DNA of 64,000 nucleotides, taken from positions 64,604,001 to 64,668,000 of the forward strand of contig OZ024741.1 of NCBI GenBank assembly GCA_964016885.1. The letters run 5' to 3'. Numbering within the stretch: the stretch's first letter is position 1; each line of letters begins with the position of its first letter. Under the pieces are notes generated by a model that saw nothing but the letters and a program-made list of their open reading frames with translations, was not told where the DNA came from and did not search any database. The stretch is from Eledone cirrhosa (Eukaryota). The translations under genes were made by a program, and so were the position numbers. Shown in pieces: positions 7,789 to 40,473 of this stretch.

Positions 7789-7827
7789 CATTCACATTGG
7801 AGTGTGACTGTCGGGATTGGACGCTTT
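7789..7827 (-). CDS. SMARCD1: Candidate 39-nt cassette microexon ((E/K)SVQSRQSHSNVN), phase 1/1
   Basis: Acceptor atttttcCAG after a ~74-nt AG-free zone with poly-U and TACTGAA branch-like motif; donor ATG|GTACGC. Open in phase 1; CpG-retaining flanks. Confidence 0.65.
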
Positions 7828-9878
7828 CTGGAAAAATACCGGTAGATATAAAAGACGAAGGCATTCAGTAAGTTGAATGTAAAAAAAAAAAAAAGAAAGA
7901 AGGCTGAAGAAGCTGCACCAACGCAAGTAAATCCAAACAGTTAATAACAAATAACTCCAAATAATCAATAGTTGTTTTAATAGAAGGAAATTTAAATGAA
8001 GTAAGCTTGTGTAGTTACAAATAACTGCTCACTTATTAACTGATATAACTAGACATAGTTTCTGGTTTTTGTGTTGTGTATTTTTTCAGAACTGAGACAA
8101 TTTTGCAATTGGTAGTAGAGCTGAGTTTGTTTAATACTGTTAAATAACAAGCTAAAGAGTGAAAAATCTAGGTAGAAGTTTCAATTTCACTAAGTGGAAT
8201 AGAGAAAAGGTTGAGATAAGGAAGAGGGGAAGGAGAGAGTTTAGTGATTTAGTTAAGAAAAATAATACTATATTGCATTTTTTTTATATATAAAATTTTA
8301 TTTTCTCTGCTTTTTTTTTAAATTCATTTTTATTTTATATTTTTTGATAAATTTATTCCAGTTGCCATTTAAAAAAATATCATGAAGTCTTTACAGACTT
8401 AAAGGATAATAAGTTTTTAACAAACATTCCATTTAAAAGGCAAGGGGGCATACTGCAGCTATACTGCCAAGTGCGGAGGACATACAGACCTCTTGTCAGA
8501 AAACTATTAACTAATGTTCCCTTTAAAATAAAAAGAGAGCAATGATAATCGAAAGGAGTGAAACATACTTCAGCTAACTTTTACCAAGCAAAGATCTACT
8601 AATATGGCAAATATTTGAGTACAACTCAGACAAGGTCTCAGTTGAACGCAATTTAAATAGTATCAGGTATAACATATAAATATACACATTAAGAACAATA
8701 GTAACATTTTCAGATATAGGTTATTAATCAAACCTAGTTTAACATGTTCCAATACTCCTTTGTCATATCTGTAAGTTGTTCACTTACAACTTGTAACAGT
8801 TAATAAGTAAAATCTAAATTACTAGGTGGACAGGGACTTTCTTTAGTTTCATCTACAGACTATCAAGTATGATTAAATGAGTTTATTTTGTCACACAGCT
8901 AGACTGTCCATTATCATCCTAATCACCTAGTCATTTCATTGACATACTGTTATACAAGGAAACAAAAAGTGCCTTTCTCATCACATTGACCAAGTGTCAA
9001 TTTCAGACTAGTGACCAAATTTCATAGACACGTCTGATGTCTTTTAATTTCTCAAGAGGCCTTACAATAAAACAACACCTCAATGTGGTGGCTTAAAAAT
9101 TAAGTCAATGACTTAGATATAAATATTTCAAAAGGCACTTCATCAGAAAAATAAGCAAAACTAAACGTTAGCTAGAAACTAGAATTTGAATGTGCTATAT
9201 TGTGTCTGGGAATCCAACAATTTATCACTGGGCTACATTGACATCTTTGATACAATGTAAGAAAATCTTGTTTTAATAACCTTAAAATTGCCACTCACTC
9301 TTCAACTTCTCTTTCCTGACCCTCTTTGTTTTCTCTCTACTCCTTTCTCTCTTCTTTAGCTCTCTTTCTGTATTTAAAGAGGTGATAGTATTTTCAAACA
9401 AACTATCGTAGAAAAAAAACTTTTCAAGAGTTGATCCACAGATAACAATTAGAAGCAATACTTCAAGACAGAGCAGAATTATAGCAAAATTATGAAATCA
9501 AATTATCAAAGAAATGCTATTAAATGGAGAAATGGTTTCAATTTGTTTTGAAGAATGGATATTAGATGCATTAGAAATAACCTTTTTTTTTTTCTTCTTT
9601 TTTTTTCTTTTTAAATATTACGTTAGAAACAGAGAAAAGTCAGTTTTCAACTTTAATGCCTAGTGAATATGTAAGAAGTATGCAAAGAATGAACAAGAAT
9701 TTATATGAATATAGGAATTTATAGAAATATGTATTTATAATATAAAGTGTTTATATATATATATAGATGGTTTCAATTTGACCCAGGCATGTAGGTGCAA
9801 CCAACAGTGCATTATATCTTATTCTAGAATATGAAAGCATTTTAAAATTTATTGGAAATATTTTCTATTTTCCTTTAA

Positions 9879-10134
9879 CCCTTTTGATACCAAACTAGCT
9901 GAAACTGCCCTGGATTCATAATCCAAAACCACTCGTTTTAAAATGATTATTCTTATATTAAAACCTTTCGTTATAATTTTATGTTAGAAATTTTTGATAA
10001 GTAATGTTCTAAATATCAGCTTCCTACTGAAAAACTTAGTTATGTTATTAATTTACACCAAATATTTGGTTATTTTCAAAATTAGTTGAAACATGTAGGC
10101 AGCATTTTTCATTAGAAATGCAGTAACGAAAGGG
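9879..10134. mobile_element. piggyBac-like MITE family 1; related copies at ~4670-4930, 5808-6060, 6250-6490, 14480-14732, 21192-21450, 29660-29882, 34019-34283, 34997-35230, 43812-44036
   Basis: TTAA on both sides (9875-9878, 10135-10138). TIRs CCCTTTTGATAC / GTAACGAAAGGG; internal motif cattagaaatatggtaac shared among copies. Confidence 0.75.
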
Positions 10135-12857
10135 TTAACATTTCATAAATTTATTTCCCTCTTCTATCAAGAGCTGAATGGTTCATTAAATGTAGGCATT
10201 TGCATAATTTATTGAAAAATTAATTTGACAAATATGTCACTGCTAACTCCTACCATGCAGCAGGGGTAGCTAGTTTCAACTCAGCTGAATAAGACAAATA
10301 GAATAGGCTTTGTCAAAACTGTAACACATAATAAGAGCAGTGGTAGAATTTAAATTCTGTGAACTACCATCTTAGCCATTCAACCACTAGATAGTCAATA
10401 TAAAAATGTCAGCTGCCAATATAGAAAAGATTGGGCAGCACTTCCATCTCTGGCTATGTTGTAAAATAGATTAAACTACAAAGTGAAAAGTGCTGTAAAA
10501 ATGACACTACAGAGGTGACATCTTAAGACAATCACAATGGGGAAAACTATTTAAGAACTATATACAAGAGATGGAATTTCAGAAATAAAACTTTTGAAGC
10601 TGGGTCAAATATGAACCATATTTTAAAAAATAGTTACGGTAATCAAATATTCCTTCATGCAAACTCTTCAAAAGATTAAGACAGAACAAGTTTATCAACA
10701 TCATTGCACCAACACTTGCAACACGCATAAAAGCTATATCAACAACAAAACAAAACAAAAACATTTTTTTTTCCAGTGATGCATTATTGAATTACAACAA
10801 TTTACTGATACAAAACAAAAAGCCAATCAAACAATATAAGAGACAGCCGATAAAAAAAATATCTAGAAAAGAAATTAAATGAAATGCCCAATAAAACAAG
10901 AAAAATAGACTGAGTTAGCAAAACATAACATAACATTAGACATAGATAACAAATGTAAGGACTAATAAAGAAACACAAAACACAATTACATTCAGAGCAG
11001 GACAAAAATGTATTATGTCAGTATATTAGAAAGGCTGGGAATAAAAAGGCATTAAATAAACCATGCTTTTAGCTCAGTTGCAACTACATTGTGTTAACAT
11101 TGTATTAAAAATGTTTGTACAGGAATTAGTTGAATGGGATATTTCCACACACAAAAGGAAATTGCCAAAATTCTCATTTAGAAAAAAAAAATAACTAAAA
11201 AATAAAATCATCTTTTAGAAGTGTTTATTTTAAAAGTTGATTCTTTTAACTTTTAATGTTCTGTGCCACATGAAACCACATTAGCAAGACATTATTGAAA
11301 AGTATAAAACATTATGACTGCATCACATTAAAAATTAGTCTTTTGTCTAATACTGCAAATTTTCACAACAATCTGTCCACTTATAAAGATATAAACATTT
11401 CCTGCTAAATTCTCACAAACTTTAAATCTACATAGATCTCTATTTCTTTGACACATATAATTAAACAAAAAACAACATAAAGAGTTCTTAGGAAATTAAA
11501 AGATGAGTGAAATGTTCCAAAAGGATACCTTATCAGCTGTTTCCATCGCTGACACCTCAACCCTTAGAAGCATGAGATTCTATGACAATCGTTAAACTAC
11601 AATAATTTCCCAGTGTTCTGTCCTAGTTTTTACTTCATATTCAAAGATTTTTTATACCAACTCAACTAAAACCACTTTAAGTTTAGTGATATAAAACTAT
11701 CCAAATCAAAATCTTGCAACATTATTTTATATAAGAGCTTTTTGTTAAGTTATGTTACATGAACATTAAAAATGCACAGGTTCAATTCCCAGTTGGCCCT
11801 TTTTTAAAATTATTTTAAATGATCTTGCGTTACTAGTTATCTAGTGTTATTAGTGACCTCTGGTTAACCTCTATACATCAATTTGCATTCACATCATCCA
11901 AGCAATTAAAAAGATCAAGTATAATATTTTTAAATGTGGACAGTGTATTTCATTAGAAATATGATTGCAAAAGTGGGTGCATATAGATTTTAACACCACC
12001 AACAAAATACTTATTTCACATAACTTTCTTCACTAAGTAATATAGTAAAATATATATATATATCAAATATATAGCTGATGCTCAGTGCCATACTATCAAT
12101 ATATATATGGCACAGCTCTTCAATAAGTAGAGACAAGTCATATAGATAACATATATATTGTCAAGGATTTATCAACCATAAACAAGATCTTCCAGAGCCT
12201 GGAGGATTCAAAATGATTCAACAGAAACATTTAGCTGCTTTATAGCAGTCCTTGTATTTCATCTTTTAACTTGTTTTTGCATTGTTTATTCTTGAAATCT
12301 CACTGTCTCTCCCTCCCTTTTCTACCCTATGAATCCCTATACAAAGTTCTCTAATTTGATTTCTTGCTTTCAAAGTAGTCCCAGCATATGAGTAGCTGGA
12401 AGTAAACAAAAATTCAAGAAACTTGTTGAAACCATAAAACAAGCATTATGTAATGGAGTTGTGAAACAAAAACTATACTCTAAACGACACTTAAAAATAT
12501 TTAAACATCAAAATATTAAAACTTCATAAATATATTTTATACTCATGAGAATTTCAAAACCAAGTCATCTAAATATGTTTTGATTAACTACCTTGGCTTA
12601 TGAACAGGGTTTCGATTTTTGCCAAATTTCTCAGGCATAAAATTGGGATAGGGGGTATTATATTTGAGTATATAGAGTAAGTAGATTTTGGTTTACTAAC
12701 TGCCCTTCCTTTACAGATTGTAACTTTAAATGACTGAAAATTCTAATTTGAGGTTTTTGTCTACTTCATTGTTGTACACAAGACATGATATTATTAAGAA
12801 TTGGTATGTTTCTCCTATAACTCATTTGTATATATACTTCTTTAAAATTGTAGACAC

Positions 12858-13010
12858 AGCATAGTCAAATGGTTAAGGAGTTTTACTTTGCAATTATTTG
12901 GTCCCAGATTCGATCACACTTTGTGTCACTCGGGGCAAGTGTCATAGCTTTGAGTCAACTAATGCCTTGTAAGTGAAACTGGGTAGACAGAAAATGTTTG
13001 AAAGCCCATC
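12858..13010 (+). mobile_element. Degraded tRNA/CORE-type SINE (family C); related fragment on the minus strand at ~40825-40915
   Basis: A-box-like TAGTCAAATGG, B-box-like GATTCGATC, core GGGCAAGTGTC, tail GCCTTGTAAGTGAAACTGGGTAGACAG. Confidence 0.5.
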
Positions 13011-14085
13011 AGAAGAACAAGGAAGCGTTAGCTGCATAAGAATTACCAACCTATAAGATCAACCATAGAAATGGTTCATGTAACAAAAGGTAAATAAATA
13101 CACAAGAGGTTATAGCTTATATTTTCCTGAGAACATTTTATTAGGATATAATTTATCTTTGCAACTATCATAATGACAGTAAGTTTCCAGAGACAGTAGC
13201 TTGATTTGGTTCTGAGTTTGAGCTATTTCATTTCATGTTACTAATATTTTCAGGGAAGGGCATCAATACCACAACAACCATGGCCCCTCATTTCTAATTT
13301 CAAGACCTCATAAACAAGAGGGAGACATATCCATGCACTAATTAAGTATGGTCTAGAAATAGGTTTGCTCTTACAAAGAACCTTGCCAAGCTCCAATTTA
13401 AAAATAGATGAAAATATTTTCTAAGGAATGTCACAGAGCATATACATAAATACTCAAATAACCAGTTATTTCCCTTTGCATATAGATTGGTTTGTGAAAG
13501 GGGGAAGGAATTAGTTATAACATTATAATAATAATAATAATGAAATTATTGTGTACAGTGCTCAGGTGCACTACAACTCATCAAAGGTGCATGTATAGTA
13601 CATAGAATAATGTACAAATGTCAGGAAAATAAACAGTGTATGAGTCATGATATAATTAAATTAATGACAGGCAAAATAATAATCTCTGCATATTCTAGCA
13701 GATTGCCTACAATTAGGAAAGGCCTGGAAAAAATGAATAGAATGTATGTATGCATTTGCCTTCAGCATGGAACAAGCAAATCCAAAGACAAAACCTACTA
13801 TTAATAAATAACTATACCTTCAACAGCATAAAAGTAATTTTTGTCGATGAAGTCAACTAAATTGACATTAGCCATTTATCATTGCTAATTTAATTTTCTG
13901 ATAAATAAATTCAAAGTAGTTTTACATTTTACTATTCATCACAACAATATCAAACACAACTCATTTACTTGATCTAATGCTATTTGTTATAAGCAATGCT
14001 AATTAACAATTGTAGATAGAGCAAGGGTTTCTTTTTTGTTCTGTTTTGTTTTGATTTTTATTCAATAACCAAATATTGTCTAAAT

Positions 14086-14247
14086 CAGGGTTTTGCAAAT
14101 TTTTTCAAATGCAGAACCCTTTATGGTTCAGAAACTTTTGGGAGAACCGCAAAGTCTAATACTCTTATGGTCGTAATATAAATATACTCCTCTACCTTTT
14201 TTCACAAACCTCAGACACTCCTTTGCGAAACCCACTTTGAGAACCTG
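14086..14247. mobile_element. hAT (Charlie-type) MITE
   Basis: TIRs CAGGGTTTTGCAAA / TTTGAGAACCTG. 8-bp TSD gtctaaat / gtctagat matches the NTCTAGAN target preference. Confidence 0.75.
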
Positions 14248-16339
14248 GTCTAGATGATGCATGGTTGAACAATAACATACAATAGGTAGAAAAGGAGGTG
14301 AAAAGACCAACTGAATAAGGTATTGCACTCCCAGTTCAAATTTATTTAAGTTGTCCCATTGTGCATTTTTGTGCCTGACTCTAAAAAGTACATTATACTG
14401 ATTAATATGACAGATGTCAAGTATAAATATGAAAACTAAGAAATATCTGCAATAAACCTATCTCTGAAAAGAGAAAGATTAACATATTTGATACCAAGCT
14501 ATCTGAAAACGCCCTGGGATTTATGATTAAAAAAATATTTGTTAAAGTGCTTACATTTATCTAAAAAAACCTTCCATCATATTCTATGTAAAAACTTTAT
14601 TTAGTTATGTTCTTAACATCAGTTTAATGAAAAAGTTAGTTATTTTATTAAATCCTTCCAAATTCTTAATTTCGAAATTATTTGAATATTATAGACAGTA
14701 TCTTTCATTATAAATATAACAAAAAGGCTAACACTAGAGAGTCCAGAATTTAGCACAAACCTTCTTAGAAATCTGAGATTTCAAGGGAATATTTTAATAT
14801 TGGCAAATTTATTCTAATAGCAAAATGCCATTTTTGCCACTATCCTATCAGTAATGAAAGAATAGATAATGTAGTTAGCCAGACAGACTGAGGCAGAGTT
14901 ATGTGATTTACCAAAGAGTATGTTAAAATAACTACCTTGTTTTGTTGGATACTGGAGAGGAAGGGAGTTCCAATAGTTATGCAATATTTTCCTAAATTAC
15001 AATATCCTATGATTCTCAGGGGGTTGTGGAGATAACACTCAACTGAGCTAGTGTTACAAATATTAATTCTATAGTTTACAATAACATAATATACCATCTA
15101 GTTTGACATCAACATTCACTTATTAAAAAAAAACCTTTTTATACTAATCTGTCTGTAACCAGCCCTGGTTCTATGATACTGTCCATTTTCAAGTGTTCAT
15201 ACTTATATTAAAATTTTCCAACATAATTTTATCTAAAAAGTTTTTGTTAAGTAGTGTTCCAAAAGTTGTTTAATGAATACCTCCACAGGAAGTGTATTTC
15301 ATTAGAAATATGGTAACAAATCGATTAAAAGGAAAAACACTGTGTTTTCCAGACTAGCATTTATACATGTTTACATTGAACTGAATAGTATATTATGCAT
15401 TCAATCTTTTATAGATGGTAAACTTGATTAGCAATAAAACCTACTTTATTACTAAGTGTGAGATGTATGCATTATGCAGTTTGACACTGGTGCCAACATA
15501 AGACACATTGCTAAGAGACATATAGCAATGTCTCTGAAAGAGGATTTCAAACTAATAGATATGAAACAGAATAGCCACCTATCAGCCATCACATGTATAT
15601 TTATTTTTACAAGCAAATTTCAAATGACTATGAAGATCAATAGCTGTAAAAATAATAAACATAGATTTTTTGTATTGAACTATATATTTCAAAATTATTC
15701 TAACACAGTGTCTAATAAACACCAAAATGTTGGCATTTGACACCAAAATCAGTTCAAATTATCTGATAGCAATTTGGAATGACAAATTTTAGGAACAAAG
15801 AAATGAGGACTATCAAAAACATCTTGAGTGGTATCAAGCAATGATACACAACAGCAATAATTATGATGTGTTTCCATAAAATGTTTCAGAAATAATTGTT
15901 TCTACTTTTGGCACAAGGCCAGCAGTTATCCAGTGAATTACTGGTACTTTATTTTATCGACCCCTTAAGGATGAAAGGCAAAGTCAGAAATAATGAACAC
16001 ACAAATGAAAGTAATTGACAATAACAAAAGCTTTATCAACAAAAGAGAGGCTATGCAGTTCAACACCAGATCAGAGGAAATAATGGTGTAGTGAGTTAGA
16101 TGCACAAATTGTTGTGAACATTTGATTAACCACCTCCATATAGCAGGATAACAAGAACTGCTGCAGTAACCATAAACTCATACACTGACAATGTTAAAAC
16201 AGAAAATAACAGCGTTCCTTCTTCATATACATTGCCTCAAAACCTTACTTGACAATAACTCTATCACACTCTCACTTAGTAGTTGCATTAAGGAGACATG
16301 TTAATATGAACCTGTAACTCATGATAGAGTCAGAGGGGT

Positions 16340-16625
16340 GCTGTAGTGACATACAGCATGTCTTTGGTATTTTCAACATGGCAGAGCCCATCAACTCTCC
16401 AGGTCTGAACACAGCTGATTTCTTCCAGAGAAGGAGAGCAAGAATAACAGAAAGGAAATGAGAAAAAATTATAGAGAAAAAAATTAACTCCAGTGTTTAT
16501 TGACCTCGAAAGGATGACAGGCAAAATTGATCTTAGCAGGTTTTGGACTCAGAATGCAGGGAGCCGGAATGAATACCACAAAGCATTCTATCTGATGTTC
16601 TAATAACTCTGCTAATTAGCTGCCT
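16340..16625 (-). mobile_element. SINE family B, long-tail variant (also ~19025-19310 and ~35500-35772)
   Basis: Family-B head and body (CTGAGT.CAAA..GCC..TCATCCTT) joined to a shared distinct tail (plus strand TCTGAACACAGC..TTTCTTCCA). Confidence 0.65.
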
Positions 16626-16840
16626 ATATTAAGGGGATAAACAAGCAAAATGACCACAGCAGGAACAACAATATATTAACCATTCCGATGCTGCTATCAA
16701 CTACAAAGACCAAACAATAGCAATACAATAAAATAGAAGCCAAATATATAACTCAGCCAGCAAGACAAGAGACAAGAGCAGCAGTCCAAAACAAGAAGCC
16801 ATTTTAACCGTCTGGTTTAACTGGTGAAGACAATACTTAC

Positions 16841-16873
16841 TTGAGGTTCCAGACTCTCGGGTCTTGCTATTGG
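16841..16873 (-). CDS. SMARCD1: Candidate 33-nt cassette microexon ((A/T)NSKTRESGTS), phase 1/1
   Basis: Poly-U tract, CTTAAT branch-like site, UGC at -17..-15, acceptor tttgTAG, donor TCAA|GTAAGT, ~71-nt AG-free zone; open in phase 1. Confidence 0.7.
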
Positions 16874-17651
16874 CTACAAACAAATGGGCAGTTTCATTAA
16901 GGTAAAAAAAAAAAAAAAGAAAGGAAAACAAACCGACCATATACAACTTCATAAATGATTTTATCATATATATATATATTATTATTATTATTATTTACAT
17001 TATAATTAATTTCATATAGATCATAATGCAGTGACATAATGGCCTGCAATAATTTGCAGGGAATTTCCATTTGTCATTCAGCCAATAATTCTTCGTTCAT
17101 AGTAGATAATGAAATCCAAATCTTCAGTTTTTTACCAACAAATAAAACATTAGCAAATGTTACACAGAGAGACATAAGAATTGAAAATAAGCAGTTTTTA
17201 CAAACAACCAGTAGTGTTTTTACATCAATATTTTCCAATTCCAACAGGTAAAAAATAATATTAAATATTTTTTTTTAAAGAAACCATTTAGTTATTTATT
17301 AAACCTTGTTTTGAATTAGTACACAGACACAACTGACAGAAAACTGCACAGGAAAAAATAAAACAACAAAAGTGCAGGTAATTCTAACAGATACAAAGAA
17401 ACTGGAATCACCAAGATACACTGGCATGCAGTAACAACTCCCATTGTAGCTGCTCCCAAAAAATCCTTCCCTTCAACTACAAATCCATAATAACATGCCA
17501 AAGAGAAAAACGGAAATGTAAATATGAAAAACTAAATATTCAAAAAGATATATAGATATATATTAGTAAAATAATATTTAATTCAAAGTCCAGGCAATAT
17601 TTATAAAAAAGTTTTCACATTGAACAAAATAATTAAATACCCAGAAGCAAA

Positions 17652-17711
17652 AAAACAACCAAGCTAAAGACAAAATTTCATAAAACAACCAAGCTAAAGA
17701 CAAAATTTCAT
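17652..17711. repeat. 30-bp perfect tandem duplication
   Basis: aaaacaaccaagctaaagacaaaatttcat x2. Confidence 0.9.
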
Positions 17712-18258
17712 AATACTAAATAATCCCTCAAACAACATTTAAATATGTAAATAAAATATATATAAATATACACCAATACATATATAGATAGTTTAAGGTC
17801 TGGGTTATTATTACTATTATTAGTTTAAATCTTTTCATGATTTCAGTAAATTGTAAAAACTAGTGTCTTTTTATTTAGTCGAGAGACTTGTAAAGAAAAT
17901 ATATAACCTGCAAATGACCAAAGCTTGATCACTGTTTGAAATTTTATCTAATGAAGACAATAGAGTTTGCCTGAAATACTTGAAATATAGTATAAGAAAC
18001 AAGTATTAGTACAATTCCTAGAGTAAAACAAACCCTTAGAAGCTAAAAGACAAGTATATCTTAGTTTAAACTTTCAGAAAACAAGCTCTTGACTTTTCGG
18101 CAATAAATATCATGCTTATATAAAACCCTATTTATAGTCAACTTATGTCTGATTCAGACTGTTTTAGAAGAAAAAAACAAAAAAAAAATTTATTTCCTCT
18201 ATTAAAAATACAAATTACTATGATGTCATCCTGTCACTTACACAAAGATTAATTTTAA

Positions 18259-18380
18259 CTCTTAACATCCTGTACCACACGAAACCTCATACACAAAATG
18301 ATCTTGAAAAGTATAAATATTCAAATTAACAAACCTATTTTCAGACATTTTCTGCTAAATCATTACAGGGGGTTTAAGAG
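18259..18380. mobile_element. TTAA MITE family 3 (longer copies at ~1085-1275, 11245-11410, 41925-42152)
   Basis: TTAA flanks; TIR CTCTTAACATCCTGTA; shared internal gtaccacatgaaacc and ttttctgctaaat. Confidence 0.65.
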
Positions 18381-19953
18381 TTAAACAGGATAAAATATGA
18401 CAACCAAGAGGAATTGGAAAAATAAAAGCTGCCAAGAAAATATCTACATCAGGTAGAATTAGAATGTCCATATATAAAATCCTTTGAAAACAAAATGCCA
18501 ATTTTCAAGATGACCATCTAATGAAATAGCACTAATAAATATTTTGAGGAATATAGAAAAACCTAACAAATAGATACAGAAGTTGTAACTAATTTCAAAT
18601 TGGAAAATACTAAAGCTTCTTCAAACTGGAAACAAGAGTTGCAGTTGATCACATTCATGGAATACTGGCCAACCAGCTGAAGGGTTAATGGTCCACAACT
18701 TCTCATTATGAACTCTGGATCATTTGCAAAGAAACTAAACTTTAAATAAGCCTAATCTATTTCGCTGTAAATAAGTACAATGAAGTACTGTAGTTTACAG
18801 CTCTAATCAGCTGCAGTAACATTAATAATTCATAAGTTAATAAATAATTCACTGTAATAGTTCATTAGTTTCCACTGTCGAACTTAAATCCTCCAATAAT
18901 CCTTGGAAAAGACCATTTTCCTTATATCAACTCTTATATTACTACAGGATGAAATCTTCAGTGATTTCTCAATAATACAACTGATTGTGAAGTATCTATT
19001 GTATGTATGGACCAGTAACTCCTGATGTAGTCTTAGTGGCACCATATATAGCATGTCTTTGGCATTTTAAACCTGATGGAGTTCATCATCTCACTAGGTC
19101 TGAACACAGCCATTTTCTTCCAAAAAAAGGAGAAAGAGAGTGACAGAGAAAGAAATATAGAGGAAGAATCAACCCCAGTAATGGACTGGTACTTTTTTAA
19201 TTTACTTCAAAGGAATGAAAGACAAAGTTAACTTCTATGGGTTTTGAACTCAGAACACAGAGCCAGAATGACTTCTGCAAAAGCCTTCTATTCGACATTC
19301 TAATAACTGCCCACGAAGTGTTTATTACTGTATGCCAAAAAAAAAAAAAGAGAGTCTAATAACAAACTTATGACCAGAGAATACAGGAATAAATTGTCCT
19401 ACAGATATGTAACAAAAACTTCTAAACCAGTGAACAATAACCACCATTGTGCATAAACCTCAAATCAATCAGTACCAGCAAGTGAACTATTTCTGAAAGT
19501 CAGCGAAATATGCTTCAAAAGAAGCAAGTCCCAAGCAAAACAGCAAATTACCAAGATGTTAAAGATGGTATATGTATAGTTTTAGATTGTTTTTTAAGAC
19601 ACTGTAATTAACATAGAGTTAAATAAAATTCAGAAGTAGAATTGTTTCTTTTATGAGTTTATATTTCAGGTAGATTTCACCAGAAGTGATTTGAGTTTGT
19701 TAATTCAGTGACAGGATAATTCAACATTCAAATATATTATTTTATGAGAATATACAAGCCTACTTATTCACTTTTAGACTATAACTACAGTAATTCTATG
19801 GAAAGGTATTTTAAATATGTATTAGTCAAGTTTTCAATTCTTCAGTCTCATGTTCACATTTTATACACACGTGATTACATACATACACACACACATATAT
19901 ATATATATATAATATATATATAATATAATATATATATATATATATATAATATA

Positions 19954-19998
<45 letters not shown>

Positions 19999-20687: not shown

Positions 20688-20690
<3 letters not shown>

Positions 20691-20735: not shown

Positions 20736-20740
<5 letters not shown>

Positions 20741-20800: not shown

Positions 20801-20878
20801 TTGAAGTCTTGTGAGATGTAGAAGAGGAGGAAGAGGAGGAAGAAGAGGAAGAGGAGGAGGAGCAAGTACTACTAGAGG
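20801..20878 (-). CDS. SMARCD1: Candidate 78-nt poly-Ser cassette exon ((A)SSSTC-S14-TSHKTS), phase 1/1
   Basis: ~168-nt AG-free pyrimidine-rich region with branch-like CTTAAT, acceptor ctctgtTAG, donor TCAA|GTAAGT. Length divisible by 3 and open in the required phase. Confidence 0.6.
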
Positions 20879-22386: not shown

Positions 22387-22436
<50 letters not shown>

Positions 22437-28340: not shown

Positions 28341-28604
28341 CATAATAACAAAATAAAGTAATGGTACAGATTTGAAAAAAAGTAAATAATTATAATAAAG
28401 TCTGAAAGAATTAAGTTCTTTTTCTCATCCTTTTTCTTTCAGACTTTATCTTTCCAACTTTTCTCACTATTTAGTTGTGTAAAGGTGGATCAGTAATAAT
28501 AATAATTATTAATAAAAGTTAAATCAACAAATAACAGAAAAAAGATAAAAGAAAATCTCTAAGCTAACAATATTTATCTCCGTCTCTCTTTCTCACTCTC
28601 TATT

Positions 28605-28639
<35 letters not shown>

Positions 28640-29214: not shown

Positions 29215-29410
29215 ATAATTGTTTCTACTTTTGGCACAAGGCCAGCAATTACCCCAGTGAATTACTGGTACTTTATTTCATCGACCCCATAAGGATGAAA
29301 GGCAAAGTTAACCTCGGCGGGATTTGCACTCAGAACATAAAGGACCATAACTCTATGCTGCAAAGCATGGTGTCTGACGCTCTACCGATACTGCTAATCC
29401 ACCACCCTAA
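29215..29410 (-). mobile_element. Full-length SINE family B
   Basis: tRNA-like head, central GCCGAGGTTAACTTTGCCTTTCATCCTT..GGGGTCGAT..AAAGTACCAG, (ATT)n tail. Confidence 0.85.
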
Positions 29411-30850
29411 TAATAACTTTAGGAAAGGGCCAAGAGGAGATATTGGTGATGTACAGGACAGTTTAACTCATATTATAATGGTAGCTTTTGAATGAAATTG
29501 AATGGTAACTTTAAGATAGGGTCAAAAAGGGAAGTTTAACCCATGTTGTAATGGTAAATTTCGAATGAAATTAAACCAGAAATGGTAAGGTAGTAAAGTA
29601 AAGAATTATAATACCATGTCACCTACTAATAGCATCTGGATGGGTTTCAACAATTAATCATCCCTTTTGTTACCATATTTCTAATGAAAGACACTACTCT
29701 ATAATTTTTTTAATTATCTAAAAAATAATTCAGAATTTGGAGAGATTTAGTAAGCTGGTGGATGGAACTTAAAAATTCTTACATAAAATTATGATGGAAG
29801 GTTTTTAGATATATATAAAAATTTTAAACTATACAGCTTGCTATCACAGAACCAAGGTCGGTTTGGTATCAAAAGGGTTAAGTAATGTAAATAAACTCTT
29901 CAAGTCATATCATACTCACTAAAGGATTTACAATAGGATTTGAATAGTCATTTGATAAATATATGTGAATAATATTATCTGGCGGGATAAGAATGAGTGA
30001 ATTATCTTTGAGATGCCACAACATATTGTGTTTACTAAATTACAAGAACAGCAAAATCTGTTGCAATACACAAGCTGTATTTCTCGTTTTAATAGATTTG
30101 CAATCTGTAATAAAGGCACTCTGAGTTACTTAACTATTTCTAGATTCATAGTAATCTCTACTTATTACATGTTTGAATTATATATATATTGGCAATGAGG
30201 AAAGAGCACTGGATGTAAAATATTCATTTTTGAGAAAAGTTGCATACAGGAGTTAATGGTAATCGCAACTGAGCACCAAAAGGTATTTGATCAAGAGGTG
30301 GGTGCGTTGGTAAGGACATACAATATGATGGGTATAAAGATCAGTGAATTGATTATAGAAGGATGCAATGAGGGAAGAAGTAAGCTGTATAAATTTTGGT
30401 TGCAAGTCAAAAGATCAAGCATGAAAATGTTGAGCCTCACAAATGAGATAATGCATGGAAATAATCTAGATTATAAACATGTCCCATTCATAACATCATA
30501 GAATATCAAACATGAAAACAATTATAATTGTCTATCCCCTCCCCAAAACGACCCCCCCCCCCAAAAGTGTTGACATAACTACCAGGATAACTTCAAATTT
30601 CAAATAATAAGAATGCATTTAATATTCATCTAAAAAAACCAGCCACATTATTTCAAAATCGATGATAGGAAACAAATCAAACGAACAGGTACCCATAAAC
30701 AGAATTTATAAGTGAAACCAAAGAAGTTACCTCCCTTCGTACAGAGAATGGTAATAAAAATGTAGATACAGGATGATAGAATTATTTAGCGATACTCATA
30801 GCCACTAACTATTTAAATTAAAAATTACATATTTTATATATATATATATA

Positions 30851-31101
30851 TGAGCAAGACACTTTATTTCACATTGCTCCAGTTTACTCAGCTGTAGAAA
30901 TGAGATGATAGGACTGGGTTCCCTATCATTCCACTGCAAAGTGGTCATGGAGGTGCCACGGCAAAAAAGCACCCAGCACTCACTGTAAATGAGGTTGGTG
31001 TTAGGAAGGGCATCCAGCTGTAGAAATCAAGCCAGACCAGTTCCCGTCCCACCCTTGCAAGCAGGGAAAAGCGGACGTAAAATGATGATGATGTTGATGA
31101 T
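30851..31101 (+). mobile_element. 5'-truncated SINE family A
   Basis: Reverse complement of most of 2981-3317; ends in GGACGTAAAATGATGATG. Confidence 0.85.
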
Positions 31102-31811
31102 AGCTATTAATTGAAAGAAAGTCAAATCTATAACATTCTAATACCAATTTATATAATTTTCATACATTCAAATCAAGTAAACTACTAAACTTAATCATCT
31201 CCATAGTTATACCGAATATGAAAACATAAAATCTAAGTGAAATTCCAATCATAAAACCTAAATTCCACATCAAAAATTTAAAGAAAAAACAATCGGCAAT
31301 ATTCAATTCTACTAAATTTTGAAATGCTTCACCATGCAGCAGTAGGCTGTTCATTAAATAACTGTTCTACAAGAAACCATATATTGTCATAATAAAATAC
31401 CAATATTTTATATTGAAAAAGTCTAAAAGTTTACTAGCGTGGAAGATGGACGTTGAACGATGATGATGATGATGATGATATATATATATATATATGAAAA
31501 ATGAAACAATGTATTTATCTCAATATCTCCAAGATTCAGAAAACTAACCAGATTATAGGCTAAACTATGACATATATATATATAAATTCAACATAAAATA
31601 CTCCTGAAGTTGATTCAATTAGTTATCTTAAACCATATTTCTAGACAATTTGAGAGTGAAATTAGATAAAAAAGATTTTCCAACTTCTCAAAAACACCAT
31701 TTTGTACCCTCCTTTATAGTCTATTTCTACTAATAAAAATGTCTGACTCTAGATTCATAGGAGAAATATAGCTGAGTGAATCAACTGCAGTAGATGACAA
31801 GAAGTTGTCTT

Positions 31812-31870
31812 ATCAACTCAGTAGATGATTAATACCATCAACTCAGTAGATGATTAATACCATCAACTCA
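31812..31870. repeat. 25-bp tandem repeat x2.4
   Basis: atcaactcagtagatgattaatacc repeated. Confidence 0.85.
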
Positions 31871-34800
31871 CAAGAGTTGTTGGTTTAAGTCAAACTTTGA
31901 GAGGTTCAAAATCAGAATTGTAAAGGGTGAAAATAAATATTTTCTGCTAGATATCAAGCATATCCATCTTTGTATTTTTGTGTGCTAGTTTGGCATGAAA
32001 GGAGAATAGTTTATGATCATTAAATTATCAAACAAAAAGTTTTAAAAAACCCACTGAATTTAGCATGTTAACAGGCAAGAAAACAGATAGGGGCTTTGCA
32101 AACCATACTTGCACACAGCTACAGACGATAGCTTTGCAAACTTTAAATATATGAATAAAGTTGTTAATAATATTAATGATTGTGATAGTGGTGATGATTT
32201 CTTCTGAAGGGACAACGTCACAAATTTTTTAACGTTGAATATGAGTGTGTGACGTTCATGCCTTTCTCTAGGGCATTAGTGATGTGAGTGAAGTGAATTG
32301 GCTTTAACCGAGAACCAAAACCACATTGCAGACTTGGCTCACTGGGGAGCTTACCTCTAGCTCAAAGGCACTCATCACAATAATATAAGAATAATAACAA
32401 ATGACAGTCAAGATAGCACAAAAGGATGGAATTAATTGGTAAACATACGAACCCTGTCCACGCCCAACCCCCTCCCAGAATGGCAAAACAGTCCAGGAAC
32501 AAGCCAGCATAGTTATGGTGCTATACCTTTTTCCCTTTTTCGCATCACCAATGTCATATAGGTGGGACTTGAAGCTACAATACATAAAGCAAACTTCAGC
32601 TGTGATAGGGGATTTTTTTTTTAGAGGTATGTGCATAAGCTAACAAATTAATTTACAAAATAATTTTTTTATAATTTTACACAAGCAACTGGCATACCAC
32701 TGGTAATGGGCTGCACAAAAATATTGCAGTAACTGGACTCCCCAGCAAAATGCAAAGGGTGCCAAGAATTTACCTCTTGCTAGCACCATCTTAAAAAAAA
32801 TATATATATATTTAAATTAATAAATTGGTTTTAAATTTTGCATGTGCTATAAAATGAAAATCAAAAGTGGTATAGGAAATTAAAACTGAATTCCTAAACT
32901 AAAACTTATGACTTTCTATCCCCAAATATATATCTTTCATGTTAATGAATGTATAATGAAAATGTTTGGGTATTTTTTGTTAAAGAAATCTGGAGGCAAG
33001 CCAGGTGCAGGGAAGGTATTTAGACAACCTAACAGACTAGTACATGACAGGTCCTTATTTTTCCAACCCTATCAAAATCAAAGAGGACAGACGGAAAAGA
33101 AAAGTCACCACTGACACGAGTTCTGAGATAGTACAGAAACCACCATCATTATTTTACATTCACTTTTCCAATCAACTAATCATCATCACCATCTTCATCT
33201 TTACGTCCACTTTTCCATGCTGACATGAGTTGGACAGACATTTTCACTCTTTTAGTCACTTCTTACGACACACAGGGATACATTGTGTCTATGCCAGCAT
33301 GTCATGTCATAAATCTAAAAATCTTAAAGTCATTAACTAAACAAAATAATTGTATCAACCAAAATGCCAATAAAATATACACAAACAGACAGATAACAAA
33401 TATTGAAGAAATTTCTTACTCACAACTAGTAATGTCATGTAAATGCTGATAGAACATTGAACCAGAAAATATGAGTGTAAGTTCAGCTCCAATATGCATG
33501 GATCAATAAATAGATTGTTGTCATTAGGCAGTATATCTAAGTATTTCAGCCTAAATATATATATGCTTTACACTCGCACACACAAATCTATAATTTTTTT
33601 TAAATGGCACAAGGCCACAGAGTATATAAGAATGGTACATAGCAACACAAAATTAAGTACTTTTGTACTTTAATCTCTTTGCTTTACCATTTCTGTCAAC
33701 AACATCCACTACTGTGTCCTTTCCTTAATAACAATGACTAGAAATAATTTATAATTAAGACACCTAAACACAAATCAAATAAATACTGCATGTATATCTA
33801 AGTAAAGGCACAGAACAAAATAAAGATATAACATTGTTTGCTAAAGCAATGGAAGGAATTAATACAAATAATAAAGCAGATTCACTGAGTAAAAGAAAAA
33901 AAAAAGAAGAGAAAATGAAGAATGACTAGCCAATACAAATAAGCATCCTAACAATCGTAGATCAATAGGCAGAAAAATAAATTATTCTCATCTCATTAAC
34001 ATTAATAAATTAGTTTCCTTAACCCTTTTCATACGAACCTACCCTTTCAGCAGCATATTTCAAAATGAAATACCCTGGATTTTAGTTAATTAATGAAGAA
34101 TGTTGAGAGATTTATTCTTTTTTTATTTCATTATTAAGATGGTATTTGTAACATAACCTAATAAATAGTTTTTATATGAAATTATGTTAGAAGGTTATAA
34201 TTTAAATAGGAGCACTTTAAAATGGGAGGGTTTGTTTCATAGAACCTGAAGAGGTTTGGGACAAGTTGGTATCAAAAGGGTGAAGATTACATGTGGATCT
34301 ATGACACAAAACCAGTTGTTTTATATTATTGATATTTAAATTAAAACCTTCCATCATAATGTCATGCATGAACCTTTAAGTTATGTTCATACCAATAAAT
34401 GTTAGTTATTTCACTAAATCCCACCAAATATTTTCAAAATTAATTATAACAAAAAGAGTATTTTTGCTGAGATTATGCTCCTTCATCTTATCTCCAAACT
34501 ACTAAATGCTATACTGAGTGTGGTAACACAACCAGAGTACCTCTACCAAATAACTTCATTTGAAGCAAAAGTTACCAGTCTAATAATACTACAGTTGCAG
34601 CTGTATTGACGTTATACAGTTCATATATACTCTACATGTGTATGTACATACACACACATATACATACAAAGTAGTAAAATAATAAATACCAAGACATGGC
34701 TATATAAAGATAACATGGTTAGTTTTCACAAAAGGCCTGCATGTCACAGCTAAAGAACAGACAATTACCTAGTAGTAATCAAAATTGAGTTATTAACTTG

Positions 34801-36689
34801 ATTCTGCCAGGAACTAACCACCTAGTTACAACAATCACCACAATATTCATGTATACAAGATAGAGAGAAAATAAAACACATATACAAGAAAAAAGCATAT
34901 AGCCATCACAAAAGCATATACCATTACTCTGGAACTGTTAAATGAAAGCAACTCTGGTGTGCTGTTATTAAGTTTTCCTAAATCAGAAGCTCATATTACC
35001 CTTTTAATACCAATCCACTTAAAACTGGCCCTCGTTTTGATACAAAACTGCCCATTTTAACTTTCCATCATAATTTAAAATAATTTTTTGTTAAATTATG
35101 TTTCAAATATTAGCTTACTAGCGAAATTGTTAGTTATTTTATTAAATTTCTCCAATTCTTTTTTATTTTTAAAATTATTTCAAACGCCATAGTTAGAGTA
35201 TTTTATTAGACACAGTAACGAAAGGATTGCTTAGGCCAATGTTTCTATTTAAAAGCTGTGGTAGAAAGCAGATGAGGTTAACATCACTGTCCAGTGATAT
35301 TAACCTATTACAGTCAACATTTCCAAATGTCCTTATTCCTCAATAAGGTGTGTGGTATAATATGGTGAGACCCAGAAGCCCATAAACTTACTGGAATATT
35401 ATGACATAGTCATCAAATAATCATTCATTATCTTCTCCAGAATTGACTGCCAGCAATATATGCATGGGCCCATAATTCCAGATGAAATTGTAGAGTCATC
35501 ATAGTGACATACTAGGGCATTTTAAACTTGGTGGAGCTCATCCCCAATTCATATCTGAACACAGCTGATTTCTTCCAGAGAAGGATGGAGGAAGTGAGAT
35601 ATAAGAGAAGAATTGGTCCCAGTAATGGATGGGTACATTTTTTTTATCGACCTTGAAAGGATGAAAAGCAAAGTTGACCTTGGTAGGTTTTGAACTCAGA
35701 GCGCAGACAGTTGGAACAAATATCACAAAGCATTCTATCCAATGTTCTAGTGACACTGCCAATTTGCTACCTTGCCAGCAATGTACTCCAAGACAAATTG
35801 AAACCAGCAGTACAGAAAGGAACTTCTCAACTAATTGTCTACAAGATAAATTCTTTGCACACTCAAGTTATTTAGCCCCTCTACAATAGTAAATAGAAAA
35901 ACTTTGATATGTTTGTATCAGGGCAACTACAAATATTTCTTGGCATTGGCTAATACCACTGAACTGATAGGTGGTAATAAATAAAAACCAACCATTGGGA
36001 CTATGGTTTATAACACAAGGGAGCCATTAAACTGCTTGTAACCAGCACACTGCCAAGTGGATGCCATTACTTACAATAATATTCAACAAATGATAAGTTA
36101 TAGATATAACATGCAGTCTTATGAAGTTTTGAATTTGTCTGTGTGTATGTGTGTGTGTGATTGTTAAAACTTAAAGACTTACATTTAAAAGAAAAAAATG
36201 TAAACGAGAGGCCGCATGCCTATTCACAAAAATGTGAACAAAAAAAGTCATTACTTTATATGTATGTTTGTATGTGTGTGCGTGTGTGAGTATGTGTGTG
36301 TGCGTGTGTGTGTCAGTGTGTATGTGTACATATATAAATATATACATGAGGAAAGAAAACAAGAAAACTTAGAGACTTGAGGTTATGCCGTTTGCATGCA
36401 AAAGATATTCAACAGAAATTCATTGGAAACTGAAGGATTACTTTCACCTAGAAAGGTAGTAAGAAAACTGATAGATGAAGGCAAAAGAAAGAGAAAAGAG
36501 AAGATGGAAGTAAAAGGATAAACACCATATTTGAAATACAGGGAAATATCATGAAATTAAAATAATAAAAATAACAATAATAATAATAGTATGTGGAATA
36601 TATATATATATTAAAAACAAGAAAATGTTAAACGAATATTGCTAACTAACTGACAAGCAATAATATAGCATAATAATGGAACCACTTAC

Positions 36690-36798
36690 CTGGATAACCA
36701 TGTGTAGGAACACCTGGTCCACCGGCTCTCATTCCCATCGGTGGCGGCGGAGGCCCGCCACTGCCCATCTGCGGTCCAGGGTATGGGGCCCGAGGTCC
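36690..36798 (-). CDS. SMARCD1: BAF60/SMARCD exon, Pro/Gly/Met-rich (GPRAPYPGPQMGSGGPPPPPMGMRAGGPGVPTHGYP-), 109 nt, phase 0/1
   Basis: GC-rich island; acceptor tttcatttattttgaAG and donor CAG|GTAAGT. Composition resembles the PGM-rich N-terminus of SMARCD proteins. Joins in frame to exon 1783-1672. Confidence 0.85.
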
Positions 36799-38132
36799 CT
36801 TCAAAATAAATGAAAAAACATCTCCCACTAGACAGCCACAAGTAAGGTTGATAAGAGTTACAACATGGTGTATCCAAATGACCTCTTAACATACAATTTT
36901 AGAAATCAGCTTCAGCTCAAAACACTTTCTTGATTGACTAGTTGTAAAACAAAGCAAAGCAACTGGAACTCTAATTATTTAAATCCATTTTACACATGAA
37001 CTATGTGTACACATACATCATCATCACTATTATCATTTAACATCCATTTCCCTGCTAGCAAGTCAACACAGAATCAGTAGTCATATGGAGCTACTGACCT
37101 CTCAAATAGTCCAAGGGCCTATATCTTACATACATTCCCATATTCTGCCCAGTACTCAGACAGACCAGAGACCTGCATCTCGCCTACACACATGTATATA
37201 CATATATATCTGTAGGTATATGTGTCTGTGTGTATGTTTTTTTTGTGTCCTAGTCATCATTAAGACATCTGGCTAGGAGAAAGTCACTGATATAAAACCT
37301 GTGACTTCGTTTGCATCCAATGGTGTAGATGAGTTCTACTTTTGGGGTTCAGAGTGTGGAATTGGCCCCGAGCAAAGTCTTTCCTCACTTAAAAAAGCTT
37401 CAAGACAGGCATCGCTTGATATGTGACATTTTTTTGCAATGCATGACATTGCTAGCCATAGACAAGCCCCTAGCAGGACTGAAAAGCTACGTCCATGATG
37501 CTAATGCTTAAGTATCAAGCGATGGCATGATAATCTTCATTCCTATGTCAAATCTCAGTGTGTGACGACTCATGGAAAAGGGACATAAAACAGTGTTGAT
37601 GATGATGATACCCTAACCCATTGAAGCATGGAAAAATGGATGTAAAAATGGATGTAAAAATGATAATGCTATAATTATGAGTCAATTTTTCACAAATAAA
37701 TTTCTATAGAATGGGTATAAAGTTGATTGAATCAACTCCATTATAGACTTGGTACTTAGTTTTTTGGCTCTAGAGATATTAAGTAAAGAGAGGAAAGTAA
37801 GTGCTGTTGGGCACTTAACCTTTTCATTACCATATTTTTAATTAAAGATACTGCCTGTGATAATTTTCAAATTATTTTGAAAATAATCAAGAATTTTGAG
37901 TGACATAGTAATATAACTAACTTCTTCATAATTAAGCTGGTCAGTCATATTTTTAACTGAAGTATATTTGTGATCTGACAAACCCTGTATACAATTAGGT
38001 ATATGACAGGTGATACATTATATAATTATTTAATTGTTTATTTAATTAATTTTCTACTGCTAACAAAACTCAATGCGTCGGGAACAAATTTTTTTTTTTT
38101 TTAAATATATCACCAATCCTTTCCTTATTTAA

Positions 38133-38340
38133 CCCTTTAGCAATTAAGCCGGCTGTGTCCGGCCAGCATACCCTCACCTCTTTCTGTTCAAACTGGTTGT
38201 AACCGGCCGCTCATACTGACGTTAAGGTATTGTTCTCAAAATAAATAATATCAAAATCTCAGAGATTTGATATTATGTGAGGTAAAGCCTTTACCACGAA
38301 AATACAATAGTAAATATAGAGTAATGTAAATGCTAAAGGG
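38133..38340 (-). mobile_element. piggyBac-like MITE family 2, inverted copy
   Basis: TTAA flanks at 38129-38132 and 38341-38344; reverse complement of 26334-26554. Confidence 0.85.
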
Positions 38341-38477
38341 TTAAAACAGTAGGGTTCAATTTGAAGAAGATTTCACCTGCTATTTCCAGCTGAATGAGTA
38401 ACTACAAAGATACTATAGTTTCAGTTAATCACTTGGAAGTACCTTCATCTCAAAACCCTGAAATATAATTACAAGTA

Positions 38478-38985
38478 CAGTAAACCCTTCATTTAACGGA
38501 CCCAAATTTAAAGTATTTGGATTTAATGGACAAATAATAATAATTGCTCCTACTTTTGGCACAAGGCCAGCAATTATCCCAGTGCATTACTGGTACTTTA
38601 TTTTATTGCCTCCATAAGGATTAAAGGCAAAGTTAACCTGGGCAAAGTTAACTCAGACCGTAAAGAGCCGTAACTATGCTCCAAAGCATGGCATCTGATC
38701 CTCCATCGATAATGCCAATCTACCGCCAAATGATAATAATAATACAACACTGTACAACTACTAAAAGCACTCTTTAACTACACTGTTGAAAGTGAAATCA
38801 CTATTACATATTCCTTGTTAAAATTGAATTTTATATTGTGCACTCATGTATATTGTATTAAAGATGTTTGTTTTTTACATTAAAAGTAATAAAAACTTCT
38901 CCCCGTGTTACTTTTGATTTAATAGACTTTCAGCATTAGCAAACAAACCTTTCCCCTATTAGTTTGTTAAATTGATGATTTACTG
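38478..38985. mobile_element. Tc1/pogo (Tigger-like) MITE with a nested SINE-B (~38535-38745)
   Basis: TA|CAGTAAACCCTTCATTTAAC at the left end, GTTAAATTGATGATTTACTG|TA at the right; TA TSD. Confidence 0.6.
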
Positions 38986-39068
38986 TACTTTGATACTTAA
39001 AAAAAGAAAAGAAGCTGATGGTCAAATCAGCTCAAGTAAACTAAGTTGCCATTATTATCTGCCAGTTG

Positions 39069-39255
39069 GGGCGGTGGATTGGCAGTATCGGTAGAGGGTC
39101 GGACGCTATACTTTGACATATAGAGTTACGGCCCTTGCCATTCTGAGTCCAAATCCCGCCGAGGTTAACTTTGCCTTTCATCCTTACGGGGTCGATAAAA
39201 TAAAGTACCAGTAATGCGCTGGGTAATTGCTCGCCTTGTGCCAAACATAGAAACA
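39069..39255 (+). mobile_element. Full-length SINE family B in the rare plus orientation, with 18-bp TSD
   Basis: A box TGGCAGTATCGG, B-box-like GAGTCCAAATCC. Direct repeat attattatctgccagttg at 39051-39068 and 39256-39273. Confidence 0.9.
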
Positions 39256-39581
39256 ATTATTATCTGCCAGTTGCAATTCCTGGCAACAGATGGTGGAATT
39301 TGAACTCAGAATGCCGAGAGCCAGATCAGACATCACAAAGCATCCTGTCCAACTCTTTAATAATTTTGACTATCCACAGCCCTTAAACTAGTAATTTATC
39401 AACCCTGAAAGGATGAAAGCCAAAGTTGACCTCAGCAGGATTGGAACTCAGAGTGCAGAGAGCTGGAATCAATACCAAAGCATTTAATCTAATGCTCTAA
39501 TGATTCTATTTTGCCACTTATAGGTACTTAAATCAGAACTAAATCTAGTTAGTAATCCTCTTCTTTCTGTTTTGATAATAA

Positions 39582-39767
39582 CAATAATTGTTTCTACTTT
39601 AGGCACAAGGCCAGCAATTACCCAGTGCATTACTGGTACTTTATTTTATCGACCCCGTAAGGATGAAAGGCAAAGTCAACCTCGGCGGGATTTGAACTCA
39701 GATCGTAAAGGGACGTAACTATGCTGGAAAGCATGGCGTCCGACCCTCTACCGATACTGCCAATCCA
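39582..39767 (-). mobile_element. Full-length, CpG-retaining SINE family B (another at ~40130-40340)
   Basis: Reverse-complement match to 39069-39255; B box GAGTTCAAATCC. Confidence 0.9.
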
Positions 39768-40467
39768 AATACTTCTGGAGTACACCTGTGAAAGCGTTTT
39801 AACTTATTTCTAGCCAACCAAGAAAATATTCTGCCAGATATCAATAAATTGGTTATTTCAGATATAAATAACAATCAAAATCAAGCACAATTTTAAAAAA
39901 AAAAAAACCATTAATAATCAGTTGCTTTTTTACAGTTAAGAGTACTTTCTCTCTCACATGTACACACACATATACATACATACATACATTGTCTTTGTTT
40001 CACTCACACATCTCTTTCTCGGTGACCATAGTGTAACATTAAGACTATAAAAAACAAACTAGTGTTCAGAAATCTTCCTTACCTCCAATAACTTATGGAA
40101 CCAAAACTGAAAGACCTTAACATGTACTCAATTTCTAATTTAGGCTTAGGGCCAGCAATTTGAGGGGGAGGAGAAAGTCGATTAAATCGACCCCAGTGCA
40201 TTACTGGTGCTTTATTTTATCGACCCAATAAGGATGAAAGGCAAAGCTAACCTCGGCGGAATTTGAACTCAGAATGTAAAGGGCCGAACTCTGCCGCAAA
40301 GCAAGGAGTTCAACACCCTACCGATACTGCCAATCCAATAATAATAAATAGCAATCAATAATTGTAATAGGGAATGTTAAATAGTAAAGATTTTGCAATC
40401 CTCCACATCCCAAACTTTTCTACTCTCTCTCTTTCTCTCCATCAATAACACTAACAAATATACTTAC

Positions 40468-40473
40468 CTCAAT
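40468..40473 (-). CDS. SMARCD1: Candidate 6-nt microexon (ATT GAG = Ile-Glu), phase 0/0
   Basis: Minus strand reads ...ctcatttaaaaattggcTGCattaCAG|ATTGAG|GTAAGTA. Consensus donor, CAG acceptor, UGC at -10..-8, ~42-nt AG-free zone, and it lies in a phase-0 intron. Confidence 0.45.

Follow-up and report, generated by a model that had tools for sequence, protein, structure and literature searches.

The 64,000-nucleotide (nt) stretch of Eledone cirrhosa contig OZ024741.1 described here (the window; G000:C2:64604001-64668000, with positions counted from its first letter) lies within a BAF60/SMARCD gene on the minus strand, whose introns carry an array of short, frame-preserving segments with the features of cassette exons. 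A first-pass annotation of this DNA, made from its letters, had named BAF60/SMARCD as the host and had taken it to be a single gene, and both statements hold. The SWIB domain (PF02201) is encoded by an exon located 10.5 kb downstream of the window (profile match, E 4.6e-17), the complete set of BAF60 core exons is found in the correct order, and the orthologue P0028 matches human SMARCD1 chains with an E value of 1e-213 in a match spanning residues 186 to 625. When a full-length Octopus query was run against the genome (23 candidates scored), 12 of 12 SMARCD matches fell at this one locus; no second SMARCD gene was found with this query, the count being a lower bound. Judged by these matches, the gene is BAF60/SMARCD and the only SMARCD locus detected in the genome.

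The window contains seven cassettes (Table 1). Q and the candidate microexon IE are of phase 0-0, and the other five (A0, A, B, D and C) stand in tandem in one phase-1 intron. All seven have canonical splice sites, preserve the reading frame and are symmetric in phase, and none of their 128 combinations creates a stop codon. Four of them (IE, A, B and C; 6, 78, 33 and 39 nt) had been proposed in the first pass as an array, and their AG/GT ends, lengths divisible by three, openness in the phase of the intron and AG-free upstream zones (42, 168, 71 and 74 nt, respectively, that of A being 95% pyrimidine) were all recovered on the minus strand; the six junction codons listed then as free of stops are all among those computed here. 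The list was incomplete, as A0 (48 nt) and D (69 nt) had been missed and Q is a cassette as well. Microexons in the strict sense are 3–27 nt long, a size met in the window by IE (1/7); a looser limit of ~51 nt is met by IE, B, C and A0 (4/7), and A, D and Q are longer.

Table 1 Cassettes and flanking constitutive exons of BAF60/SMARCD in the window, in the order of transcription
Feature	Position	Strand	Length (nt)	Phase	Product and character	Splice sites or support
Q	47457..47531	-	75	0-0	QERFRQ...HPK; internal optional exon	CAG/GTAAGA ends
IE	40468..40473	-	6	0-0	Candidate microexon	CAG/GTAAGT; AG-free zone 42 nt; TGC at -10
E2	36690..36798	-	109		GPRAPY...HGYP; constitutive; anchors the phase-1 array on its upstream side	110-nt contig of run X4
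A0	32527..32574	-	48	1-1	ASSPTYMTLVMRKREK	TAG/GTATAG; TGC at -17
A	20801..20878	-	78	1-1	Poly-Ser, (TCC)n-like tract, ends TSHKTS	TAG/GTAAGT
B	16841..16873	-	33	1-1	(A/T)NSKTRESGTS; bears K-x-[KR]-[DE]	TAG/GTAAGT; AG-free zone 71 nt; TGC at -17
D	9299..9367	-	69	1-1	RELKKRERSREKTKRVRKEKLK; basic, predicted single helix	CAG/GTGAGT; 88% purine
C	7789..7827	-	39	1-1	SVQSRQSHSNVN	CAG/GTACGC; AG-free zone 74 nt
E3	1672..1783	-			MPRTG...ISKP; constitutive, downstream anchor	Orthologue mapping
E4	847..889	-			KKKKKIADKILPQK; constitutive, opens the conserved BAF60 core	Orthologue mapping

A loose scan for pseudo-exons (YAG acceptor, AG-free zone of at least 40 nt, GT donor class, length of 3–81 nt, open frame) finds 8 candidates in two introns versus 3 on the opposite strand, and the strict donor GTAAGT is found in 3 of the candidates (IE, A and B) versus 0. 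Further candidates at four places (45447, 29840, 28641 and 28599) have no orthologue support and are not counted. Taken from sequence alone, the splice-site signal of the segments is small and suggestive, so the case is carried by orthologues.

The orthologue sample was built from an E2 query, which retrieved 13 proteins. From their clusters came 28 gene models of Octopus and, on the cuttlefish-like (decapodiform) side, 11 usable proteins; the counts below cover 15 of the 25 members of the largest cluster. Among the Octopus models, Q is present in 19, B in 18, C in 15, a 21-nt LAVLQIE exon in 13, D in 10 and A0 in 7. In the decapodiform proteins, C is present in 5, B in 4, an A-like segment in 2, A0 in 1, and D, Q and LAVLQIE in none. 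B, C, A0, D and Q are thus each present in some Octopus models and absent from others. For B, C and A0 there is further evidence from assembled contigs in Logan: one of 2022 nt and one of 2069 nt hold complete proteins of 547 and 539 residues with B and C (P0013) or A0 (P0040), and a contig of 1672 nt encodes the skipped form with no insert (P0039). Because contigs of 1.7–2.1 kb encode whole proteins, they correspond to spliced transcripts, and they are direct evidence that B, C and A0 are both included and skipped in a cuttlefish-like animal. The leading 13 residues of A0 are identical in the 7 Octopus models that carry it and in P0040, and between octopods and the cuttlefish-like contigs C is identical at 10/12 and B at 8/10 residues. 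A counterpart of A, ANSNT(S)nTSSKTS, stands straight after E2 in two Sepia pharaonis models. Thus, the proposal that the segments are optional holds for B and C, in orthologous models and in contigs, and finds no such backing for A or the 6-nt IE; conservation in relatives extends to counterparts of B, C, A0, D and Q and to phase-1-compatible junctions, and stops short of the 6-nt IE.

The Octopus counterpart of IE is the 21-nt LAVLQIE exon. In Eledone cirrhosa, a corresponding 21-nt frame, LAALQIE (40488-40468), is open and IE is its 3' end, but the frame is preceded by AA, and an inner CAG remains. The 6-nt IE may be either a shortened form or a remnant of the 21-nt exon. That it is a remnant whose acceptor was lost (or the product of an assembly slip in the A run), with the 6-nt form unused, is a tentative explanation for this one segment to which we give somewhat less than an even chance: it accounts for the AA before an otherwise open frame and for the use of the 6-nt acceptor in 0 of the 28 Octopus models, and is opposed by a perfect GTAAGT donor, a CAG acceptor, the 42-nt AG-free zone and TGC at -10, in a 10.7-kb intron where IE is the sole candidate with a strict donor.

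Inclusion of the cassettes follows a pattern. Nine of the 16 combinations of A0, B, D and C are seen among the 27 Octopus models that have both flanks; C or D is present in 16 of these models, all 16 of which also carry B. LAVLQIE always occurs together with Q (13/13 Octopus models). One Sepia model, with C and without B, is an exception. By these models inclusion looks nested and not freely combinatorial, with each exon independent of the others, and so neither 16 nor 128 is a likely number of isoforms. The earlier figure of up to 16 isoforms from four independent exons is not supported in that form, there being at least seven cassettes in the window.

The array extends far beyond cephalopods. 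A query with the insert region found 1025 relatives, 120 of which were listed, and 20 clusters were opened, chosen for many members or as outgroups; a second Octopus set was omitted from the junction, composition and pattern counts so that nothing was counted twice, and a deuterostome set from the latter two. Isoforms that differ by short inserts between an HPY-like end of E2 and an MPR-like start of E3 are found in the Littorina, Patella, Mactra, Batillaria, Mytilus, Bradybaena, Dreissena and Lingula clusters. Further insert-bearing clusters belong to animals that we take, from their accession series, to be oysters, scallops, abalone, Aplysia, Biomphalaria and a nemertean. Optional Ser/Thr/Lys-rich inserts thus occupy the E2/E3 position in 16 selected lophotrochozoan species sets, and a cephalopod-only feature is rejected in favour of a lophotrochozoan-wide one. 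In 62 comparisons with a skipped isoform, 27 inserts replace one junction residue, and phase 1 fits all 27 (10 of them from Lingula) and phase 2 none. The longest inserts of the 16 sets are made up of 28% Ser, 14% Lys and 11% Thr, and the constitutive tail of 26% Pro, 16% Gly, 11% Met and 10% Gln.

A short pattern, K-x-[KR]-[DE], occurs 21 times in 14 of the 16 sets versus a shuffle mean of 1.2, although it was picked post hoc and the sets are related. Its interpretation as a SUMO site was rejected, as it does not match the psi-K-x-E spacing of such sites. Ser/Thr-rich (A-like) first cassettes are present in other molluscs and Lingula, and a Ser/Thr-rich exon repeatedly precedes one or more K-x-K-D/E exons, from limpet, periwinkle and other snails to oysters and Lingula. 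The limpet and oyster sets have three K-x-K-D/E exons and Lingula has about five, a repetition that suggests tandem exon duplication. No insert is found at the E2/E3 position in 20 proteins of five outgroup clusters (two deuterostome-like, insects, Daphnia and sea anemones), a small sample. From these comparisons, the array was likely inherited from a lophotrochozoan ancestor. The feature is real, ancient, larger than first described and mostly contained in public gene models; B, C, A0 and D all stand there, so that the term "hidden", used for the array in the first pass, holds in part.

Several further observations concern the rest of the gene and its surroundings. In a deuterostome cluster (P0090, P0288-P0293), presumably of crinoids, GGYP is followed by three optional inserts rich in Ser/Thr and Lys/Asp; they sit one intron upstream of the lophotrochozoan position and may be convergent or point to an older origin. 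A 42-nt phase-1 exon, GPSVYNRDRKSVDR, follows the SWIB domain (L003:4396-4355; G000:C2:64588396, minus strand). It is present in 28/28 Octopus models versus 7/11 decapodiform proteins (two of the four that do not have it are fragments or skipped forms), and snail, abalone-like and Lingula isoforms have unrelated inserts of 6–17 residues at its site, which, as far as sequences tell, is a second conserved splicing hot spot, within the folded core. Octopus models differ by one Lys at the E2 acceptor (window:36798-36801), a tandem acceptor whose upstream copy seems to be absent here because the genome reads TTGAAG. Two alternative Octopus first exons match C2:64696210 and C2:64695338 (L012, L013), 27–28 kb past the window end, so the ATG at 47540, upstream of Q, is probably not the start of the gene and was rejected as such; the "exon 47540" that had been used as a first exon is the internal 75-nt cassette Q (47531-47457). 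Another phase-0 cassette, the 27-nt PQFIQASYR (PQF; PQFIQAPYR in the cuttlefish form), lies beyond the window at G000:C2:64682643-64682617. The SMARCD intron between PQF and Q contains ~15 kb of a nearly pure (AT)n-like repeat (window:48600-64000, with a gap of 200 N at 60091-60290), and the intron upstream of Q holds a perfect palindrome with 153-nt arms and a 1-nt spacer (window:48293-48599), either a fold-back element or an assembly artefact. The intron that follows E4 also contains a minus-strand open reading frame (window:1-582), 194 codons long, that resembles the endonuclease of a long interspersed nuclear element (LINE).

The placement of the array in a disordered N-terminus, as first proposed, agrees with structure prediction. 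In the model of P0028, residues ~1–220 mostly have a predicted local distance difference test (pLDDT) score below 50, and the region contains one helix (residues 145–167), which corresponds to D. On alignment with the human protein, the insert site falls shortly before residue 86, inside the span of residues 43–167 of BAF60A to which a review assigns the binding of nuclear receptors and SMARCA4 (PMC6862534). In the mechanism that we propose, the cassettes would be turned on by a tissue-restricted splicing factor; for B, A0 and IE the most likely candidate is the neuronal, eMIC-bearing Srrm234. Inclusion would place phosphorylatable and basic Ser/Thr/Lys modules into the Pro/Gly/Met/Gln-rich tail, and inclusion of D would add a basic helix. 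As this stretch is equivalent to the transcription factor-binding region of human BAF60A, partner binding would be altered and the folded core would remain unchanged. One BAF60 would thus be tuned by splicing, possibly in neurons. Growth of the array may have combined tandem duplication of the K-x-[KR]-[DE] exon with the gain of new exons in particular lineages (Q, IE and D). We put the probability at roughly 0.6 that the seven frame-preserving segments form a regulated, partly nested cassette array in the predicted disordered tail, that its inclusion retunes partner binding with the core untouched, and that it is under a tissue-restricted factor and of ancestral lophotrochozoan origin.

A number of observations weigh against this reading. 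The Octopus gene models are predictions whose read support is not visible, and A and the 6-nt IE are present in 0 of 28. The two Sepia pharaonis models with the A counterpart continue into intron-like sequence and resemble mis-spliced predictions. The species sets were picked for many isoforms, and exon orthology outside cephalopods consists of position, phase, order and a short pattern, with no alignable sequence. A search for sequencing runs at the locus (last exons, 3' end) gave four runs of one study, none on record as RNA or with a tissue. One of the runs, X4 (kind not on record), has a 110-nt contig that lies exactly on E2 with a depth of 138, and intron pieces with a depth of ~2, a pattern that looks like RNA. 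In the A0-E2 region of Eledone cirrhosa the contigs of this run, all from that one study, neither cover A0 nor contain an exon–exon joint, which is neutral on splicing as such. To these are added several points about splicing control. The strict microexon size is met by IE and by one exon upstream of the window (27 nt); long AG-free zones are not specific to cassettes, measuring 17–168 nt for cassettes and 17–117 nt for constitutive exons; of 1201 intronic YAG sites, 304 (25%) have a TGC; and the eMIC match described below is weak, with none in the genome at E 0.001.

That match comes from a genome profile search with PF15230 (eMIC), in which positions 12–55 score 29.3 bits, over the cut-off, with an E value of 0.004, and positions 56–67 have an E value of 7.6. 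It is formed by two exons, in order and 21 kb apart, on contig C22 (L023:1501-1638 and L024:1501-1536, G000:C22). Both of these eMIC-like exons are preceded by long AG-poor acceptors, and they make up the end of a probable Srrm234 gene. By this weak match, the genome appears to encode an eMIC-domain regulator, and in non-vertebrates eMIC processing of Srrm234 confines the microexon programme to neurons (PMC8797185). Among nine cassettes, three (B, A0 and IE) have TGC no more than 25 nt from the acceptor, versus 0 of 15 constitutive exons. Given the 25% background at YAG sites, 3/9 is not above background, and UGC was rejected as proof of neural control. We regard neural Srrm234/eMIC control of B, A0 and IE as a roughly even bet.

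In one rival reading the array is regulated and functional, but its programme belongs to cells other than neurons (those of the germ line, muscle or embryo, or stem cells) and may work, for instance, by PTB-type repression at UC-rich acceptors. It would suit the acceptor of A, which is AG-free for 168 nt, 95% pyrimidine and devoid of TGC, and C, D and Q, which have no TGC within 25 nt; most cassettes exceed strict microexon length, and exon 7 of DPF2, which belongs to the same complex, is regulated by PTBP1 (PMC11701043). However, TGC at -17, -17 and -10 in B, A0 and IE speaks against this reading, Drosophila eMIC exons also have long AG exclusion zones and UCUC tracts (PMC8797185), and a response to SRRM4 is possible with no strict need for UGC (10.1101/2024.09.17.613571). 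On balance, we consider non-neural control unlikely.

Quite improbable is a merely tolerant hot spot, in which frame-preserving exons arise and vanish, are included at low levels and hardly affect function, and the Lys/Glu pattern reflects purine-rich splicing enhancers and no peptide motif: A is microsatellite-like, D is 88% purine, Q, LAVLQIE and D are in 0 of 11 decapodiform proteins, peptides differ between mollusc classes, and one deuterostome cluster has a second similar cassette set in another intron, but such turnover does not readily fit the identity of A0 (13 residues), C (10/12) and B (8/10) between octopods and cuttlefish-like contigs, inclusion forms abundant enough to be assembled as contigs (P0013 and P0040), or the recurring order of Ser/Thr-rich and K-x-K-D/E exons from limpet, periwinkle, other snails and oysters to Lingula.

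Beyond the regulated array itself, a bolder version can be formulated. In lophotrochozoans, over a span that we take to exceed 500 million years, a neuron-specific BAF switch would operate via splicing and not paralogue exchange, Srrm234-eMIC loading tandemly duplicated Ser/Thr and K-x-K-D/E modules into the tail of one BAF60, where transcription factors bind; octopods would have extended this to at least nine cassettes, among them one that encodes a basic helix and a microexon recently shortened to 6 nt. In its entirety, this version is doubtful.

Parts of the array have close counterparts in databases. Annotated SMARCD isoforms of Octopus bimaculoides (e.g. XP_014770215.1 and XP_052826317.1) and the accession series XP_0363624xx and CAI97281xx, which we take to be O. 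sinensis and O. vulgaris, have cassettes Q, A0, B, D and C in many combinations. Unlike the locus described here, they are database predictions, lack exon A and have a 21-nt exon where Eledone cirrhosa offers a 6-nt one. The SRRM3/4-Srrm234 eMIC programme (PMC8797185; 10.1101/2024.09.17.613571) likewise comprises short frame-preserving exons in disordered regions with AG exclusion zones and UGC, the latter found in three cassettes here, and an eMIC-like regulator is present in this genome as well. It differs in that the cassettes here are mostly 33–78 nt long, stand five in tandem in one intron and are known from sequence and models. Neuronal cassette exons alter other chromatin regulators, namely exon 7 of DPF2/BAF45d (a BAF subunit), exon 8a of LSD1 and exon 34' of TAF1 (PMC11701043), but these are one or two exons per vertebrate gene and not a nested, lophotrochozoan-wide multi-exon array in the tail of a core subunit; the main text of that review does not mention SMARC genes. 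Vertebrate BAF60A, B and C resemble the present case in that BAF60 diversity resides in the disordered N-terminal half, which binds transcription factors, and differ in being three genes instead of one spliced gene; the named splice isoform of BAF60A lacks residues 423–463 and has no N-terminal insert (PMC6862534).

No paper on a BAF60 cassette array was found in the literature on cephalopod microexons, SMARCD/BAF60/Bap60 splicing, neuronal BAF splicing and microexons of chromatin regulators, in which subscription journals are thinly covered; the supplements of two bioRxiv surveys may list these exons. The array is thus apparently undescribed in papers, though partly annotated in databases. 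A survey of 20 species found nuclear chromatin genes to be enriched for tissue-specific expression and not for tissue-specific splicing (10.64898/2026.09.05.749416); it includes O. bimaculoides, and SMARCD/BAF60 is not mentioned in its main text. A deeply conserved splicing switch in BAF60 would therefore be an exception to this trend. Should inclusion prove low or flat, the array would amount to another case of a disordered tail that tolerates a hot spot of splicing. In vertebrates, BAF complexes are made tissue-specific largely through the exchange of paralogues, and invertebrates have single genes. The array would provide a concrete route to BAF specialisation with single genes, in the very subunit that links BAF to transcription factors.

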